Assembly (NCBI GenBank): GCA_951406725.2
Contig: OX597822.1
Span: forward strand, 111,538,001-111,602,000
Length of the DNA stretch: 64,000 nucleotides
Reading direction: 5' to 3'
From: Octopus vulgaris
Lineage: Eukaryota
The translations under genes and the position numbers were made by a program. The stretch's first letter is position 1; the number at the start of each line of letters is the position of its first letter. The notes under the pieces were generated by a model. It was given only the letters and a program-made list of their open reading frames with translations. It had not been told where the DNA came from and made no database searches. This document shows positions 723-59,475 of the stretch, one piece after another.

Positions 723-1955
723 CTGATAACCATTATGGCTAATAGTATTACGCATTTTAGTAGCAGCGTGAGCGTTGGAAAACGATTTGTATTGAAGTGG
801 ATTATCCAGAAAATTTCTGAATTCCACGAAAAAAAAATTATTGATTTCTCTAACGTTCCAGAAGACAGTCATTCCATTAAATATGTCATATCATATGTAA
901 TGTTATCCGAAACTCTAGCCAAAAATATATCAACCAATACCTAGTTTTCGTAATCTGGTATACGTTACTGTCCAAACAGTTGGCATATTACTGATAAAAA
1001 TGCCAAGTTCCGTCATGAAAGCACCATCGAAGGACCTATCGTAGATTCAAAATCCCTTCGATAAATATTCTAATAGATGATATTTAAACTTAATCTCTCA
1101 ATCTCAGTTTATCCTTGGCTTGGCAAAGAATGTGAGCAAGTTCGACCGATTTCTAAATCAATATGAATATCTAGAGACATTACATCTACTTATAAAACAC
1201 GTCAAATCAATGGTTACACCAACTGGCTAAAAACTAGTGTTCTGATGCTAAGATCATTACTGCTCTCCGCGGTTAATTGATTCACGTTAATTGGATTGTG
1301 TGCTTAAGTAAATAGGTACAATAAAGAAATATGCATGTGCTGATGACGTATAAATGTACAGCTATATCACGATAAGTAATATTGATACGACTGATTGCTG
1401 AATTTACATGTACATGTTCTGATTTGAATGAATGATGTTCTCAATAATCCCTACTAAATCCAAAAGAAGCCAAGCAATAAGGCGAGTAGTGCAGGTAATA
1501 ACTTCACATGTGAGGAATATCGTTTAAATATTCCTCGAGTTACTACAATCATGAGAATTAATAGTTTGCGCAATATCGTTCAGGCTGTATTATATGCCCA
1601 CAATTGTGATAGTGAGTAAGTATTTTCATATGATGATAAACAAGTCATAAAGAAGAATATCATGCAAATAAATGCGACCGTTTTAGAAATACCATACATC
1701 ATTCGTTTGTCTTCTACGTATTGTGCCATGCATTAATATACAGTGTATTGTTTTGTGTATTCTTGTAGCAACCACCCTGAAGATCCTACTACATATTGAC
1801 AATTTGAAGTTCATTGTACCAGAAAGTAAGGAAGAAAATTGATATATTCTGGTTGGACAGGATGCAAATCATTTGTAGGTGAGTCTATAAGTATGAATGT
1901 AGTTATACATCCATCCGTCCGTTTGTCTGTCTGTCTGTCTCTCTCTGTATCTGTC

Positions 1956-2017
<62 letters not shown>

Positions 2018-2109
2018 TTAGAGACAAAACCCTATTATGCAAATCAAACAAAGAAAGACTTAACACAATACATAAAAAAATTTATATAAATTAAATAAAA
2101 TTAAGTTAT

Positions 2110-2155
2110 CCACTACAATTGTTTCTTGTCACTTCTAAGGACATTCATCAGGTGG
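2110..2155 (-). ncRNA. Minimal type I hammerhead ribozyme motif (mirror copy)
   Basis: Exact reverse complement of 2230-2275 in the left hairpin arm. Confidence 0.85.
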
Positions 2156-2229
2156 TTTTCAGACCTTCTATTCAATTTTAAATTATGAAATAATTTAAAT
2201 AATTTAAAATTGAATAGAAGGTCTGAAAA

Positions 2230-2275
2230 CCACCTGATGAATGTCCTTAGAAGTGACAAGAAACAATTGTAGTGG
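2230..2275 (+). ncRNA. Minimal type I hammerhead ribozyme motif, intact core
   Basis: CCAC-CTGATGA-a-TGTC(cttagaagt)GACA-a-GAAA-CAATTG-TA-GTGG: stem I CCAC/GTGG, stem II TGTC/GACA, palindromic stem III, GUA cleavage triplet. Confidence 0.85.
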
Positions 2276-2731
2276 ATAACTTAATTTTAATTAATTTATA
2301 TAAATTTTTTTATGTATTGGATTAAGTCTTTCTTTGTTTGATTTGCATAATAGTGGTTTTGTCTCTAATTAATATTATATAATATTTTACTATAAAATTG
2401 GATTCAGTCCTAAATCTGATTTTTCCCTGTAAATCTGGATTTATTCCCTAATATTTATTATTATTATATATATATATATATATATATATAAATATACATA
2501 CATACATATGCGCACATATACAAACATAAGCACAGTTATAAACAGGCACCATATGTGGTATCATCTTAGATTGTAGAGCATGGAATTTATAATTCAGAGA
2601 CTTCCTTTATCTACATTTTGCTATAAGAAATCCATTGATGTAACAAATCTACAATCATGTTTGAATTATAAATTCAATACTCTCTATGATACCACATATG
2701 TCACCTGCTAGTTCTTTCTAGAATATATTCG

Positions 2732-2815
<84 letters not shown>

Positions 2816-3829
2816 ATGTGTGCGTGCATGTGTGAATGTGTGTATGCGTGTGAATTTATATATAGAAATAAATTGAAAGACGCGAAATGGGTTTTACAGC
2901 GCCACTCCGGGAATAACTATCCTTCATAAGCCTTAGGAGGTCGACTAATCCATATTGTGTATCTCTACGGACATATTCAATGTTATTGGGCGTTGTTTCT
3001 CCTGTATTACGTTGTGGAGATCTCGAAAATATTACATTTGATTTGATCTGTTATTCATTACGAGTGAAGCGGCCAATAGAACCTGACCTACTTTCAGCAT
3101 CAGTAATAGAGATGCGTGGAATGCATCCATAAATCACCACCTTGGCTTTATGTTAATTTTCGAAGATGTTTAGAAAAACCACGAAAGTCATGTATAGACA
3201 CGAAAGGCCTTCTTGAAAGTATCGTAATAATCCAGATTCCGGCCATAGAAAACAACGTTCACTACGCGTAACCTGAAAAATACAACTTGTTCGCATAAAG
3301 ATAAATCCTTATTCTCGAAATATAGTTAAACCCTTCTTATTCTTTAAATATCGTTAATTCCTTCATTACAGGTTATTAACGGACCTCCTTGACATCTTAT
3401 TACCTCCCCTTGTTGTCCCATTTACCGAATAATATAGCTTCACTTCACATTTTAAACCCAAAACCCCGATTACCGAACTATATATTATAATCTACGTGTT
3501 AGAATACGGCTTTTATCCTATATTGAATTTCACTTGATAGCTAGGCTCCCGACTCACACTACGCATTATAATTTTCTGTTGAGTTTAATGATTCTTTAAC
3601 TTTTTTTTACTATTCCTTTACATAGCCAATATGTACACACTTTATCATACAATTTCTAATAGCAACCTTAGTTTAAACAAGGGCTTCCCCTGTAATTTCA
3701 GGAACTAACTTAGATGCCACAAATTTCCGTTACTTATTTCTAATAACAATACCGGATATCCCCACCACGCATAACTCATTCGGCCAACACCGCCGGTCAA
3801 ATAGTCATTGTCCCCACTTACTGTCACAC

Positions 3830-4032
3830 GCATCTGATGAAGGGATCTACTAACACGTGGAGATTTACAAGTCATTAAAATGTAAGCCTAGAGACTTTAA
3901 CGAACATTTTCCCTCTTCGTTTTCTTTTTCTTTGCCTTTCATTCCTTCTTTTCATTTAGAAGATATATATTACATGTAACGAGGTAAATGTAAATCTACT
4001 CCGATTTAATAAACAGAAACAGCTGTAAATGC
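3830..4032 (+). ncRNA. Possible hammerhead motif with very long stem II insert
   Basis: GCAT-CTGATGA (3830-3840) ... GAAAC-AGCT-GTA-a-ATGC (4016-4032). Stem I is offset by one nucleotide. Confidence 0.45.
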
Positions 4033-4384
4033 TTCCAAATTCTATTAAATAATGACTTTTAAACACTAATGATTCCCTTCTCATTGCTAATTATTGCTTC
4101 ATTTTTTAAATTTACACACACACTCACACACACACACACATACTCACACAGACACACACACACATACTCACACAGACACACACACACGCACACACACACA
4201 TACACATATATATATATATATATATATGAATATATATGTGTGTTTGTGTATGTGCCTGTACGTGTGCGTGTGAGTGCATGTGTGTGGTTTTATACGAACC
4301 CTTGTTTCAATTTATTAAAACAAAAGCATGGTTTGAACAAATATATGATTTTTCGATATAGTCTTCCTGCTTTTCGAGGCACTT

Positions 4385-5345
4385 TTAGCGGCGGCCCACC
4401 AGTTTGCTTATTCCAGTGGAGAGGATGGTTCTTGGTTGGTCGCATAACCATCTATGTATTGCTTCCTCCCCTTTTGTAATAAATCGATGGTCTTGTAAAT
4501 ATGTTTCCGCAGTGCAAAGAAATGACAATCGGAAGGGAACTGTATTTAGAGTATTCAAGCAACTCGAAAACCAGAATTTTTCAATTATTTTAAATGTGTG
4601 GGCGGCTGCATGTGGAAGGGAATTTTCGTGCAGCAATAGCACTTAGAGCCCTGCCTTTGGTCCGAATTGCTGGTTTCAGTTAGTTAATCAGAATTTCGTC
4701 GATGCCCACCCTGGCGACTATAGACCACGCTTTTTTCATATAATATTATAGTACAGACCTTTTTGTGCCTCAAATGTCGATTAACCATATTTTTTCTACC
4801 ATAGATTGTACTTTGAATTTCATTTTCGCTGGCGATTTCGGGTGTTACATTTCCATACACCGGCTGTTGGATGCTGACTCAAAGTGATTGAACCAGGCCT
4901 CACCTGTGGCTAATTTTCTCCAAAAACATAGCTTCCTATTCATCGTTGTAGATGTCTAGTAAGCGTCTACAGATCTCCAAACGATTGCATTTACGCGTTC
5001 CGGCAAGCTCTCTTGGCACACACCTCGCACAGACTTCACAGTAGCGAAACTTGTCATGGATGATTTGAAATGCAGATCCATGACTAATTTGCAGAGAACA
5101 CGCCACTCAAACGACGGTCAATTGTCGGTTCGTCAGAGCTGTCTGTTGAGGCTGTTGAACCTTTACGTCAGTGGTGGATGTTGCTGGACATCCTGCACAT
5201 TCTTCATGCTTCACGCTTGTCCGGCCATTCATAAACTTCTCAATCCATTCAAACACGTTTCTATGTGGCAAAGCACTGTCTCACTATTGTACTGAAAGTC
5301 TGCGATGAATTTCAGTCCCAGACTCACCTTAGACCAAAGAAGTTG
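4385..5345 (-). mobile_element. Decayed mariner transposase relic
   Basis: Frameshifted minus-strand peptides EIHRRLS, DSALPHRNVFEWIEKFMNGRTSV, VCARCVPREL (WVPxEL-like), TGEAWFNHFE, LLLHENSLPH (HDNARPH-like), AIHRWLCDQPRTILSTGISKLV. Confidence 0.8.
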
Positions 5346-6306: not shown

Positions 6307-7009
6307 CATACATACATACATACATACACACACATACATACATACATACACATACATAATACATACATACATACATACATACAAACACATACATAATACA
6401 TACATACATACATACATCCATACGTACATACATACACATGCATAAATACATTCATACATTCATACATAAATACATACATACATACGTACATACATACATA
6501 AATACATTCATACATAATACATACATACATACATACATACATACATACATACATACATACATACATACATACATACATACATACATACACATACATAATA
6601 CATACATACATACATACATACATGCATGCATGCATACATACATATATACATACATACATACATACATACATACATACATACATACATACATACATTGATC
6701 ATCATCATCATTGTTCGACCGTGGTCGAGACAATGGAAATTACCATGCTACGCCAGACTTCACGGTCCATCATGGCATTACGGACGTCCTGTTGCTGGAT
6801 GCCTGTATCCCTGTAGATTACATCAGGGTAGGAGAGTGTGCGCCCTCTGGTATTGCGAGTAGATGGCTTCCAGAGGAGAAGAGTAGAAATTACCTCTTTT
6901 TCAGCTCTACAACAATGTCCAGCAAACTGGACTCTCTTACCTTTCACATACATACACACACATAATACATACATACATACATACATACATACATACATAC
7001 ATACATACA

Positions 7010-37874: not shown

Positions 37875-38538
37875 ATTAGAGATATATGCACATGATAATT
37901 ACATATATATATATATGTATGCATGTATGCATTCGTATATCTATCTCTCACGCAATACTACCTTCCAGCATGAGTTCCATTCGTTTTCACCATCTCTCTT
38001 ATACTTCACCTTCGCAGCTGTTAGTAAGTAATGTCCATATTAATAAGTAAGAGAACTCCTAAAAATACATAAACAAACACCAATAGTGAAGAGAACGAGG
38101 GAAAAATGTATGAGATTTAGCATTCTTAAGTAGCGTAATAAAGAATTGATTTTCTCTTACTGTCGGCATGTTAATTAACTAGCTTTTGGATTTAATTAGT
38201 TTACCTGAAACATATCGCATGTCTAATTATAAAATTTCACTTGCGATATGTATGTACTAAAATTTTAAGTATATCATTTCCATTTAAAAAAATATAATTT
38301 GCTTGATATTTAATTTAATATGACGCTAGTGGTAGAGCTGTAAATAAGCGGGAAAAAAATTAGAGAACTTGACGAGCTTTAAAATCTCGGTTGAATGTAT
38401 TTCGAAATATTTTGGGGGATGCAACCAAGTAGGTGATGGCATAAGTTGATGACAACTAGCCTGGCCAATTTTCAGCGATAGTTACAAGGTCACCGGAGAT
38501 TCCCCGGCGGAATGTATGTATATATATATATATATATA

Positions 38539-38768
38539 TTTCTTTACTACCCACAAGGGGCTAAACACAGAGGGGATAAACAAGGACAGACAAACAGATT
38601 AAGTCGATTATATCGACCCCAGTGCGTAACTGGTACTTAATTTATCGACCCCGAAAGGATGAAAAGCAAAGTCGACCTCGGCGGAATTTGAACTCAGAAC
38701 GTAACGGCAGACGAAATACGGCTACGCATTTCGCCCGGCGTGCTAACGCTTCTGCCAGCTCGCCGCCG
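38539..38768 (-). mobile_element. SINE family B
   Basis: Matches other family B copies. Confidence 0.9.
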
Positions 38769-38948
38769 TATATGTATATATATATAGATGTACCATACTT
38801 GAAGCTACAAATGATGTGCGCTGACATGAAACTACAAAGCATCAACAATTATACATCAAAGCTACTATACTCTCAGCTGTCCAAGCACATTTGCTGTTAG
38901 TAAATCACGTTAATGTCCCTCGAGTTTTTAGATTTGTTATATTCATTA

Positions 38949-42567: not shown

Positions 42568-42763
42568 TATATTTTTTGCTTAAGGTATTTTCAATGATTT
42601 AGGCTATAAAAATATAATAATGGGATAAGCATGGCATACCCAAGGTACACTGGATTCCAGTAGTTAGTAGAGCAATTAGAGTAAGTGTTATACGTGGCCC
42701 TGCTCTAAAGTAAGTCGAACAATGTTTGACAGAATAACTGTTCACAATATATACATAAAATTA

Positions 42764-42997
42764 CGTATTTCTTTACTACCCACAAGGGGCTAAACATAGG
42801 GGGGACAAACAAGGACAGACAAAGGGATTAAGTCGATTACATTGACCCCAGTGTGAAACTGGTACTTTATTTATCGACCCCGAAAGGATGAAAGGCAAAG
42901 TCGACCTCGGCGGAATTTGAACTCAGAACGTAACGACAGACGAAATACTGCTAAGCATTTCGCCCGGCGCGCTAACGTTTCTGCCAGCTCGCCGCCC
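42764..42997 (-). mobile_element. SINE family B with TSD
   Basis: tatacataaaatta at 42750-42763 and 42998-43011. Confidence 0.9.
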
Positions 42998-43419
42998 TAT
43001 ACATAAAATTATGACATACGTATGTACACGCGCATGCGCATTTATCACCCTGGGCGTATATATATACAAATGGTAATTTCTGTCTGTCTGTTACCATCTT
43101 GCTGCCCAAACCAGGGAACCAATCTTCACCCAACTTTGTGTATATAGTGAACTAATATCCAGTTCAATTATAGACTAACTGGATATCAATAAATGTTGAT
43201 AATGGATCGACGACGGGAGTGGGGGGGGTATTACATAATGAAATGAGAGGGGCGCAAAAATGTTAGGTTCAGGAAAAATGTGGCATAATGAAGGTAACTG
43301 ATATCGGACTGGGAGGGGACTGGAAGAGATAGAATCACGGGGAATGCGAGACAGATAGAACGACAGACAAGGATACTTCCATGTGTATAAAAGAGAATTT
43401 GTATGTGTGTTTTTGAGTC

Positions 43420-47545: not shown

Positions 47546-47759
47546 GTAATTCTACAGTGACGCCTTAATTAGAACATATCCACATTATTTCGTAATATCC
47601 ATTAGATTGAGCGGACGTGACAAAGGATTTCTTTTAATGAACATCGAATGAGTTTTTTGGAATCTGAATGGAAGGAATATCACTTCTGAAGAATTGTTTC
47701 CGGAAATTTAAAACGATATTAGATACTCTGCTATGTATATGAACATACCATGAATAAAG

Positions 47760-49196
47760 ATGGAGAATGTTACTGACTATTTCGAAATTTTGGGTAATGT
47801 TACAACGGAGAATGGCATATCGACCGGTTACATTTCAATCAGTGTTGATCCTCTATTTACTCCCAGTGAGGAGATCTATTCACTTCCTATCAAAATTATC
47901 ATCTGTGTTGTTCTTTCAATTATAATCATGGTTACAATTGCTGGGAATGTGTTTGTCATTGCCGCAATCCTTTTGGAAAAGAGCCTACGTGGTGTTTCTA
48001 ATTATCTGATAATGTCTCTCGCTGTGACGGACTTGATGGTAGCTATATTGGTCATGCCCATAAGTGTTGTCCACGAAGTAACTCCGGATTGGAACTTTGG
48101 AGGTGCAATCTGCGACATGTGGATTAGTTTCGATGTTCTATGTTGCACTGCTTCTATTTTGCACTTAGTTGCAATAGCATTTGATCGTTACTGGGCTGTA
48201 TCAAATATCGATTATATCAGACGGAGATGTGCCAAACTAATAGGCTTTATGGTTGTTGCTGTATGGGTGGTTGCCGTTTCAATATCGATACCTCCATTAT
48301 TTGGCTGGAAAGATGACAACGATCCTAATATCACCAAACGTTGCTTGATCAGTCAAGACCTAGGTTACACAATATTCTCAACGTTGGGCGCATTTTATTT
48401 TCCTTTGATATTAATGCTAGTTCTAAATATCAAAATATATGTCGCTGCCCGAACACGGATTCGAAAGAAAGGTTTTTATGGCTACCGACGACCTGTACCT
48501 GTTTCAGCGATTACAGTTACAATGACAGAGGGTCAAAATCTCTCACCAAATTCCTCTGGAAGTGACATTAGTCATGAACGATATAGTGCCTACAATGGAT
48601 CTTGTATGAACATGAATGAACTAACACGGGTGAATAGCGTTATGGAATTGACTGATGAACGGGAATCTGCAATACAAACAAGCCCGACAACAGCCACAAC
48701 TATAGCCACACCCGCATCGTCCACGTTGACACTAAGTGCTCCAACTGGACGAACGAAATTAGCTGAAACATCAGTAAATCAATTGTCAGTTCCGTCGGGA
48801 CCAAAAGGCAGTAGTGGATGTAGGAATTTAATTTCTTCAAAGAATCAAAGACAGTCAGCTAATGGTCACGTTAAAAGATTACGTCAACGTGAACGAGAAC
48901 GGGTAAAGAAAGAAAAAATTGAAATGAAGCGAGAACGGAAGGCTGCCAGAGTGATTGCTATTATAACTGGTGGCTTTATGGCGTGCTGGTTGCCCTTCTT
49001 CATGGTTGCCTTGATCGGACCGTTTTGTAAAGAATATTGTTATTTCCCCCCTGTTCTGATGAGTCTCTTTTTGTGGCTTGGTTACTTAAACAGCCTTTTG
49101 AATCCAATAATATATACCATATTTAATCCAAGCTTCCGGACTGCCTTTAAAAAACTAATATACGGAAAATATAGAATGAGATCACAGTGTCGATAA
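47760..49196 (+). CDS. Serotonin receptor, 5-HT1-like class A GPCR (478 aa, intronless CDS)
   Basis: Seven hydrophobic segments with aminergic motifs: GNVFV (TM1), SLAVTDL..VMP (TM2), CDMWISFDVLCCTASILHLVAIAFDRYWAV (TM3 Asp and DRY), ISIPPLFGW, CLISQDLGYTIFSTLGAFYFP, long IL3, RERKAARVIAII..CWLPFF, WLGYLNSLLNPIIY. N-terminal NVT sequons. In-frame TGA 9 nt upstream of the ATG. Subtype assigned from recalled similarity to molluscan and insect 5-HT1 receptors. Confidence 0.93.
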   Translation: MENVTDYFEILGNVTTENGISTGYISISVDPLFTPSEEIYSLPIKIIICVVLSIIIMVTIAGNVFVIAAILLEKSLRGVSNYLIMSLAVTDLMVAILVMPISVVHEVTPDWNFGGAICDMWISFDVLCCTASILHLVAIAFDRYWAVSNIDYIRRRCAKLIGFMVVAVWVVAVSISIPPLFGWKDDNDPNITKRCLISQDLGYTIFSTLGAFYFPLILMLVLNIKIYVAARTRIRKKGFYGYRRPVPVSAITVTMTEGQNLSPNSSGSDISHERYSAYNGSCMNMNELTRVNSVMELTDERESAIQTSPTTATTIATPASSTLTLSAPTGRTKLAETSVNQLSVPSGPKGSSGCRNLISSKNQRQSANGHVKRLRQRERERVKKEKIEMKRERKAARVIAIITGGFMACWLPFFMVALIGPFCKEYCYFPPVLMSLFLWLGYLNSLLNPIIYTIFNPSFRTAFKKLIYGKYRMRSQCR

Positions 49197-53380: not shown

Positions 53381-53610
53381 GCGGCGAGCTGGCAGAAACG
53401 TTAGCGCGCCGGACGAAATGCGTAGCCGTATTTCGTCTGCCGTTACGTTCTGAGTTCAAATTCTGCCAAGGTCGACTTTGCCTTTCATCCTTTCGGGGTC
53501 GATTAAATAAGTACCAGTTACGCACTGGGGTCGATATAATCGACTTAATCCGTTTGTCTCTCCTTGTTTCTCCTCTCTGTGTTTAGCCCCTTGTGCGTAG
53601 TAAAGAAATA
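53381..53610 (+). mobile_element. SINE family B with TSD
   Basis: tgtatatatctta on both flanks. Confidence 0.9.
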
Positions 53611-53900
53611 TGTATATATCTTAGCGGCTGAAAATCGGTGTGACACAAAAGTTCAAAATTCAAGGTTCATATATGAAACCTATTTAGAGGACCACGAAGC
53701 ATATTTATGCCAATAAATCAAAATTTCAGCTGTGGAATACTTGACCACTTTCAGAGTGGAATACTTCACCACTTGCCCGCTAATTCATCGCGTAATAACC
53801 TATAATAACCAACTGAAGACTCATCTGTGACAAGACAAACACCCACATATATACGCAGTTGCATCTCCGCGTATGTACGTACATATGTGTACATATATAT

Positions 53901-54130
53901 ATTTCTTTATTACCCACAAGGAGCTAAACATAGAGGGGACAAACAAGGACAGACAAACGGGTTAAGTCGATTCTATCGATCCCAGTGCGTAACTGGTCCT
54001 TAATTTATCGACCCCGAAAGGATGAAAAGCAAAGTCGACCTTGGCGGAATTTGAACTCAGAACGTAACGGTAGACGAAATACCGCTTAGCATTTCGCCCA
54101 GCGTGCTAACGTTTCTGCCAGTTCGCCGCC
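53901..54130 (-). mobile_element. SINE family B with TSD
   Basis: atatgtgtacatatata on both flanks. Confidence 0.9.
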
Positions 54131-57854: not shown

Positions 57855-58105
57855 TTGTGAACGGTAGAAGAGTCCAGTTTGCTGGACATTGTTGTAGAGC
57901 TGAAAACGAGGTAATTTCTACTCTTCTCCTCTGGAAGCCATCTGCTCCCGATACCAGAGAGCGCACACTCTCCTACCCTGATGTAATCTCCAGGGATACA
58001 GGCATCCAGCAACAGGACCTCCGTAATGCTATGATGGACCGTGAAGTCGGGCGTAACATAGTAAATTCCATTGTCTCGACCACGGTCGAACAATGATGAT
58101 GATGA
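57855..58105 (+). mobile_element. RTE-type LINE 3' fragment
   Basis: RRVQFAGHCCRAENEVISTLLLWKP..AMMDREV.., (TGA)n tail. Confidence 0.75.
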
Positions 58106-58614
58106 TTAAAATTCCTGTCCCTTATAGAAACGTAGCTCGTTTATCTTATGTAAGTGTCAATATAGTCGAACGAATGCTGTCACAAAGGCCACGACAAATG
58201 CTAACGTAATTTACATAGATTCCTGCAAGTTCACGACGTCATACAAACTGTAGTTTGTATGACGTGTTAGTCGTGTTACTTGCTAATTAAAAATCTTTAA
58301 ATTTGTGAAATCCGCGTGAGAAATGATTACATTAAATATTTCTTTACGAAACTAATCTATGCTCCAAAAGAAATTTATTACATTATATATAATATCCATG
58401 ATATGGGAATTTTACCGAATGCGATTTTATGCTTACACTCACGCATGAACAGATAGACACAAACTTGTTTGTAAGTTACATTTTACGGCCAGATTTAATA
58501 GTTTCTCTGAAGTAGTGTATTATAGGAAGAGGAATTATTTATTTGAAAAATTTAATACAATGAATTTCTCGCAAATTTTCAGATTTTCATGAATATATAA
58601 TTTATTTATCTGAA

Positions 58615-58845
58615 AGGCGGCGAGCTGGCAGAAACGTTAGCACGCCGGGCGAAATTCTTAGCGGTATTTCGTTTGCCGCTAAGTTCTGAGTTCAAATTCC
58701 ACCGCGGTCGACTTTGTCTTTCATCCTTTCGGGGTCGATTAAATAAGTTCCAGTTACGCACTGGGGTCGATGTAATCGACTTAATCCGTTTGTCTGTCCT
58801 TGTTTGTCCCCTGTATGTTTAGCCCCTTGTGGGTAGTAAAGAAAT
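58615..58845 (+). mobile_element. SINE family B
   Basis: Matches other family B copies. Confidence 0.9.
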
Positions 58846-59475
58846 ATATATATATATATATCTTATGTATATGACCTGTTGTATGAGTACTTTCGATATT
58901 TCTCAAAGACTATTACCTTGTTTCACATCTATAACAAAATTAATGGAATCGCGAACATTGTAAATGTAAATCCTGATTAATAGTCTTCATAGCAGAAACG
59001 GGACTCTCTTACTTTCCAAATTAAATGTGACTCTAATGTGATAACATATTTCGCCTGCTTTATAACATTTACCCTCCCGGTATGAGGTAAATGATTTACA
59101 TATAAACAGATGCAGTCTATTATATTATTGATTTTGTTCGATTTTATAGGAATATTGCTGAAAGAAGAAAAAAATATTGTCACCTGAATTGATAATATAT
59201 GCATATAATATATGCATATAAGATAATATATGCATATAAGATTAGGTTCGCGTAAATTGGCGAATATCTTAGATGCTTTCGGTTCAAAGGAGAATTTGGA
59301 CTTTCAGAGCTACGTACCCAATTATTTTTTATTTACAAAAAATCATCCAGTAATTTATTAACACCTACCGCTTACTTTGTGGTGTGTAGTCAAAGACTGA
59401 AAAACGTCAAAGAAAATAACATTCCCCCACTCCACCACCACCACAAAAAAAGAATAGCAATTTTAACAACAACAG

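Follow-up and report, generated by a model that had tools for sequence, protein, structure and literature searches.

The stretch of Octopus vulgaris DNA analysed here (64,000 nt, hereafter the window) carries near its left end a long hairpin inserted in a (TA)n microsatellite, of which the left portion lies at 1959..2014 and the right portion at 2466..2490; nearly all family copies shown likewise end in (TA)n. Within the hairpin, positions 2011-2186 pair with 2199-2375, giving arms of 176 and 177 bp that differ by three substitutions and one one-base gap and enclose a 12-nt loop. Each arm contains a 46-nt minimal type I hammerhead ribozyme, at 2230-2275 on the (+) strand and at 2110-2155 on the (-) strand respectively, with no mismatch between the arms and with both copies facing outward. 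A sequence-only reading of this locus had described a hairpin with two identical, outward-facing hammerheads, which the arm comparison confirms, and had placed it at 2011..2465; the arms pair as far as 2375, while 2376-2465 is unpaired and represents the tail of the inserted element, which that reading had included without naming it. No target-site duplication is discernible at the hairpin, where (TA)n makes such duplications unreadable.

Based on the arm pairing and on the other loci of the family, the hairpin consists of two unequal copies of one sequence. The short arm (2011..2189, - strand) is an intronless 5' UTR copy that runs from +3 to a proximal fixed 3' end, the putative RT start site 1. 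Next to it is a 9-nt junction (2190..2198, + strand), which duplicates the first bases of the long arm (2199-2207) and makes up most of the loop; both the junctions and the arm lengths vary from locus to locus. The long arm (2199..2465, + strand) is also an intronless 5' UTR copy, which begins at +6 with a remnant of exon 1 (2199..2220) and continues to a distal fixed 3' end, the putative RT start site 2, located ~55 nt before the ATG of the ORF in the parent element. The one-sided "tail" of ~87-90 bp (2376..2465, + strand), a concept taken from PMC8557442 and PMC11167929, lies between the two fixed 3' ends. At 2411-2449 it holds a two-copy repeat of 19-21 bp and predicted small stem-loops, a candidate protein-binding signal between the RT start sites. 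The window hairpin is young, with 97-98% identity to dispersed copies.

In the (+) hammerhead, stem I (2230-2233/2272-2275) has 4 bp and is followed by the core CUGAUGA (2234-2240), the opposed A2241.A2259, stem II (2242-2245/2255-2258), GAAA (2260-2263), and the 8-nt palindrome ACAAUUGU that forms stem III (2263-2270). All core nucleotides (CUGAUGA, GAAA, U16.1, and A17) are present in both arms, and cleavage is predicted after GUA, between 2271 and 2272 (after 2114 in the (-) copy). The core, the 4-bp stem I, and the palindromic stem III bear out the earlier view that these are minimal hammerheads of the dimer type. The G10.1-C11.1 closing pair is absent from stem II, the window copy having A.A over U-A, and the ribozyme fold of the monomer is weak by fold prediction (-2.0 kcal/mol, probability 0.0014). 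A search of Rfam gave no hammerhead match at the gathering score or at E<=10, only sub-threshold matches to miRNA hairpins and similar chance matches. The hammerheads are not fortuitous: the exact 31-nt core occurs 109 times in 2.8 Gb, compared with 0 times for the reversed control.

Two broader genome-wide searches returned 3,244 matches with a relaxed hammerhead pattern (reversed control 0) and 8,603 with an anchor located downstream (reversed control 1). By hand count, 38 of the 100 first-listed among the 3,244 matches lie in divergent pairs, 19 in all, whose members are spaced by less than 200 bp; extrapolated from these 19 pairs, there would be ~600 long hairpins genome-wide, which are candidate dsRNA substrates wherever they are read through. 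We read 83 loci with the exact core, 53 of which are head-to-head and 30 solo, so that all 83 hold solo or inverted copies and none a tandem hammerhead array; the copies lie mostly in (TA)n. This set required one exact core (102 matches were counted in L001-L088), included 30 loci first chosen for a full-length long arm, has an unclassifiable end in 5 of its 53 pairs, and contains one row (L074) that stands for a neighbouring pair of another subfamily. A second set, drawn from other subfamilies, comprises 57 loci, 29 of which lack a divergent anchor pair within 5 kb.

Among 207 tabulated copies, UA stands at the cleavage site in 201 and stem I is CCAC/GUGG in 186, neither of which was demanded by the search. 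Stem III reads CAAUUG in 155, CGAUCG in 22, and CGAUUG in 20; it shifts from CAAUUG through CGAUUG to CGAUCG, every form being self-complementary with at most G.U pairs. G-C at 10.1.11.1 occurs in none of the 207 copies, nor in the 100 first-listed of the 3,244 matches, which were found with a pattern that fixes the four stem-II pairs and which by hand count have U-A (44), U.U (18), A-U (13), A.C (9), A.G (8), A.A (7), U.G (1), and G-C (0) at this position. In a subfamily reached via the downstream anchor, stem II is long and unrelated and the core is unchanged. Eight loci (L179, L180, L182, L193, L195, L198, L200, and L074) belong to a subfamily with a long bulged stem II (~37 nt) that is closed by A-U, and with a weakened stem I. 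Mutated cores among the anchor-fetched loci give no decay rate, most of these loci having been chosen for mismatch to the 3,244-match pattern. The retention across subfamilies of UA, stem I, a self-complementary stem III, and the core indicates, as far as sequence comparison goes, that the ribozyme is under selection in the parent lineages and not at the window locus.

The parent was recognized through copies that run 5' of the ribozyme into different sequence closing with a pyrimidine tract and AG. In locus L126, a 1,315-nt GT-AG intron separates the first 22-24 bases of the window unit (exon 1, 100% identical) from the remainder, exon 2 (96.7% identical), and sister copies have introns of 1,130-1,581 nt in the same place. 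Relative to these intron-bearing relatives, the window arms are exactly intronless, with the exon-exon junction at 2220/2221 matching the GT-AG intron site. In the window subfamily, 97 copies have the spliced junction vs. 12 that retain the intron. At the other end, the tail of L121 runs on beyond the long end for ~55 nt into an ATG, and L161-L163 contain the intron end, the hammerhead, both fixed ends, and then an ORF of 838-852 aa. The unit in L163 is 82% identical to that in the window. L161 and L163 repeat exon 1 and the intron donor behind the ORF, and L163 also has a short end there, so that the ORF is flanked by a pLTR on either side. For the exact window subfamily itself, no copy with an intact ORF was found, and the link to the ORF runs through sisters that are 82-92% identical.

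Read against PMC8557442, the L161-L163 protein bears the marks of the Hydra clade: DKT is present, the linker is CxCX5C, CCHH is absent, and near the C-terminus CxxC and CxH stand around E and N. At the RWK position it has RIKWK (R-x-K-W-K). Among the neighbours of the parent protein in the atlas are clusters in which a minority of members carry RVT_1 and GIY-YIG; a Pfam search with the 841-aa parent protein returned neither RT nor GIY-YIG, and PDB gave no match. The family also shows the (TA)n insertion preference and the canonical-type hammerhead by which the Hydra clade is recognized. On these motifs, from which the clade is assigned, the family is a Hydra-clade EN+ Penelope-like element (PLE) with an RT and GIY-YIG ORF. 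Nematis was considered and rejected, as the CX2-5CxxC linker and CCHH are absent, a single Cys stands between VVY and YIG, and the linker is CxCX5C; the features of Neptune are likewise missing. Two further PLE ORFs, a Neptune-like one beside L075 and another in L087, were also considered as the parent and belong to other families. The former (1070-2740, +) is frameshifted and faces a short arm head-to-head, with one microsatellite between them; the latter (2528-4567, +) is a Hydra-like ORF of 679 aa that is 39% identical to the parent RT and has RWK at the corresponding position. Between RT and endonuclease, residues ~500-600 of the L161-L163 ORF form a linker that is rich in Asn and varies in length, as is also seen in rotifer Penelopes (PMC3846280).

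The short, intronless copies that consist of UTR only (referred to here as stumps) have well-defined ends. Measured from an initiator-like ACTTC, 94 of 95 spliced arms start within -1 to +15 and the remaining one at -6; none of the 95 goes more than 6 nt upstream of the start or contains promoter sequence. This common 5' limit is presumably the transcription start. At the 3' side, arms end at two fixed sites ~87 bp apart, and the two sites are combined in a strict manner: of the 53 pairs, 45 combine a long with a short arm, 3 have two short arms, none has two long arms, and 5 are other or unclassified, i.e., 45/48 mixed pairs vs. ~24/48 expected if the ends were independent (p = 6e-11). In the second set, all 28 divergent pairs are long + short. 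The two arms of a locus also share a history. A subfamily mark that divides the copies 50:50 is concordant between arms in 20/20 pairs (p = 1e-6), position 11.1 in 20/20, and stem III in 19/20; the distance is 2.0 within a locus vs. 3.9 between loci (25 loci), and several private changes are common to both arms. Either arm may be the more truncated one, namely the long arm in 14 and the short arm in 9 of the 45 long + short pairs, one case per group being an internal deletion. Of 136 arms, at most one starts at the cleavage site, and no enrichment of 5' ends was found there among the 136. At L052, exon 1 is joined near 1060 to sequence immediately past the predicted cleavage site; the join is at an AG, which may be a cryptic splice acceptor and not a cleavage product. 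Some junctions overlap by 1-11 nt at palindromic words.

Taken together, the window hairpin very probably consists of head-to-head intronless 5' UTR copies of a Hydra-clade Penelope-like element in (TA)n, likely dead, which likely arose when both nicked strands started reverse transcription on a single sense RNA, spliced but uncleaved, at two fixed sites within it, with start site and splicing being read from genomic copies. The GIY-YIG nuclease would nick both strands of the (TA)n target, and each 3'-OH would prime one cDNA towards the 5' end of the RNA at one of the two internal sites, such that the two fixed 3' ends would be RT start sites, one per target strand. The two cDNA ends would then be joined by microhomology or a short duplication (2190-2198 in the window) and filled in. 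Each cDNA could be primed from one flank because the sense 3' end of both arms sits at the target. The exact loss of the intron points to a spliced sense template, and the near absence of arm starts at the cleavage site to an uncleaved one. A single template is favored by the concordant subfamily marks and the smaller within-locus distance, although the same agreement could result if two RNAs from a single source locus had been copied, or if the arms had later undergone conversion, and two separate primings are favored by the fact that either arm may be the more truncated. The three short + short pairs stand against a strict use of both sites. In vitro, a Penelope-like protein nicks and extends both strands, two internal cDNA starts define the tail, and unprocessed RNA serves as template (PMC11167929).

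A second way to obtain two matching arms is fold-back self-priming, in which a cDNA or antisense RNA folds over close to its end and is extended on itself to give the second arm, and the endonuclease resolves the product at the proximal site. This was proposed for head-to-head palindromic junctions in PMC3846280, and would account both for the identical marks in the two arms and for the 1-11-nt junction overlaps at palindromic words. However, a copy cannot carry sequence that its template lacks, and in the 14 pairs with a more truncated long arm the short arm extends further 5', mostly to the start, while the tail cannot derive from the short arm. Fold-back is thus already excluded for these 14 loci, as judged from their arm ends and barring post-insertion deletions. 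Moreover, an antisense template would not precisely lose a sense GT-AG intron, and we regard fold-back as an unlikely origin of the family's hairpins.

Less probable still is a non-autonomous element, MITE-like or retrozyme-like, whose hairpin is mobilized as one unit. Its appeal lies in the many short copies, the terminal inverted layout, and the TA flanks, and retrozymes have been argued to derive from PLE pLTRs (bioRxiv 10.64898/2026.07.22.740005). Against such an element, the junctions and arm lengths are specific to each locus, solo arms are common, the ends are asymmetric, no tandem hammerhead array occurs in the loci read, and a full-length parent exists.

The sequence-only reading had gone further and interpreted the geometry as a self-masking switch, in which read-through RNA silences the ribozyme and RNA initiated at the loop cleaves. 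Its physical premise agrees with our fold predictions: read-through RNA from either strand would bury the ribozyme in a duplex of ~176 bp, the full hairpin being predicted at -268.6 kcal/mol for one strand and -266.8 kcal/mol for the other vs. -2.0 kcal/mol for the ribozyme fold. A selected switch would also fit with both ribozymes being unmutated relative to the family, and with the persistence of core, GUA, and stem I in subfamilies with unrelated stem II. However, this conservation belongs to the parent lineages, and in a copy as young as that in the window an intact ribozyme needs no selection. Junctions differ between loci, the 5' end of the ribozyme is kept in both arms in just 27 of 53 pairs, such that half of the pairs lose one ribozyme, and the 30 solo loci have no second arm. 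Nothing points to a transcript starting near the loop, where there is neither promoter nor initiator: the window arms begin at +3 and +6, 3' of the initiator-like start and without upstream promoter sequence. Minimal hammerheads of metazoan PLEs, moreover, failed to cleave as monomers (PMC4209133), and because each strand carries a single sense ribozyme, a dimer cannot form in cis. The head-to-head geometry is instead what insertion of a Penelope-like element routinely produces, any masking in read-through transcripts is predicted as a side effect of that geometry, and a selected switch is about as improbable as a mobile hairpin. The window locus is probably ordinary retroelement debris, not a gene switch.

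Palindromes are a known class of assembly artefact, and no contig of four sequencing runs spans the hairpin, as expected for a repeat, but a chimeric fold-back read is extremely unlikely here, with arms that differ at 4 positions and end at two biologically fixed sites, and with the same rule found at >70 loci that have differing junctions.

The ribozyme is likely a passenger in the stumps and probably functions in the RNA of the parent, assisted by dimer formation or by protein. Minimal hammerheads of metazoan PLEs show weak cleavage as dimers (PMC4209133), and hammerhead cleavage of the anole element is protein-assisted (PMC11167929). The window family resembles the former (PMC4209133) in its type I fold, 4-bp stem I, and palindromic stem III, and differs from them in lacking G10.1-C11.1 in the tabulated copies and first-listed matches given above. 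Pairs of minimal hammerheads that occupy opposite strands at a spacing of ~100-700 bp have already been reported (PMC4209133). In D. virilis the 3' intron end abuts the ribozyme (PMC4209133), whereas in the window element it lies 9 nt upstream.

The listed members of the Hydra clade (PMC8557442) share with the window family an ORF with RT and C-terminal GIY-YIG, DKT, CxCX5C, no CCHH, CxxC/CxH, and (TA)n targets, as well as a type I hammerhead in which an unpaired N.N precedes stem II, whose first pair is often U-A. In published Hydra-clade motifs, U.U often stands at 10.1.11.1 and G10.1-C11.1 is often missing, and Penelope-13_HM includes a 5'-truncated copy in inverted orientation and carries hammerheads on both strands (PMC8557442 supplement). 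Truncated copies in inverted orientation, tails on one side, and targets of (TA)n are also published (PMC8557442), and a 5' UTR intron near the start is known (PMC2377424). Since its hammerhead differs from that of the octopus Hydra-clade family listed there, Hydra-1_Obim (PMC8557442), the window family is another family. Unlike the listed members (PMC8557442), it has R-x-K-W-K in place of RWK, an Asn-rich linker, a 5' UTR intron of 1.1-1.6 kb, and a ~87-bp tail, and its window subfamily is dominated by intronless UTR-only stumps over intron-retaining copies (97 to 12).

The closest parallel for the two fixed ends is Poseidon of Anolis (PMC11167929), which likewise has two fixed 3' ends defining a tail, AT-rich targets, and an uncleaved RNA template. 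In contrast to Poseidon, both sites of the window family lie in the 5' UTR before the ATG and are ~87 nt apart, giving a tail of ~87 bp vs. the published 30-40 bp (PMC11167929), and they are AT-rich words that resemble the (TA)n target, as those of the anole element do not. The accessible text of the Poseidon paper (PMC11167929) describes neither two-site pairing in one insertion nor intronless copies. Insertions of inverted pLTR and tail in Adineta vaga (PMC3846280) are also head-to-head, with a one-sided tail, overlapping or palindromic junctions, and Asn-rich inserts in the ORF. That study favors an antisense template together with intron retention, whereas most short copies of the window family have lost the intron exactly, which disfavors an antisense template for them.

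In L1 twin priming, both target nicks prime on one RNA, resulting in an inversion. The window family differs from this in priming at fixed internal sites and in having two cDNAs that overlap and often both reach the 5' end. We lean, with some reserve, towards a more general reading, in which the stumps record twin priming by a Penelope-like RNP on a single uncleaved sense RNA, with one fixed internal site used per strand, and in which the same process explains intron retention with no need for an antisense template: the cap-proximal intron would be spliced, but priming there would give only dead UTR hairpins, and the intron in the downstream pLTR would stay in copies that contain promoter and ORF. 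Splicing of the latter intron was never seen, 0 of the 95 spliced arms extending beyond 6 nt upstream of the start, and every copy with promoter and ORF would thus keep its intron. From general rules of splicing, we infer that the downstream intron escapes because just a cap-proximal 28-nt exon is recognized.

Both PMC8557442 (section 15) and PMC3846280 (Discussion) treat as unsettled how Penelope-like elements form inverted ends and tails and why they retain introns. The literature searched, which lacked most subscription papers, contained no report of intronless pairs made of UTR only or of a strict pairing of the two ends. The stumps may serve as a fossil record of how Penelope-like elements insert, form inverted ends and tails, and keep introns, and the octopus family is informative in this respect, as it is young, pairs one long with one short arm almost without exception, loses the intron exactly, begins within a narrow 5' range, and includes intact ORFs, leading to precise in vitro predictions.

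Besides the hairpins, locus L051 contains at 1127-3961 (G000:C5:119297400 onwards) a tandem array of more than 30 units of 85 bp, made of the sequence from the tail end towards the ATG and joined to an inverted short arm, which possibly reflects repeated re-priming by RT or later satellite growth. Elsewhere in the window, a single open frame at 47754-49193 (+) encodes a rhodopsin-family GPCR of 480 aa (7tm_1, E 2e-65). Self-comparison of the window also revealed dispersed repeats of ~250 bp, 86-94% alike and in both orientations (6695-6948 / 57856-58109, 38522-38783, 42744-43018, 53381-53619, 53885-54130, and 58594-58868), which are probably SINE or LINE ends with no relation to the hairpin.
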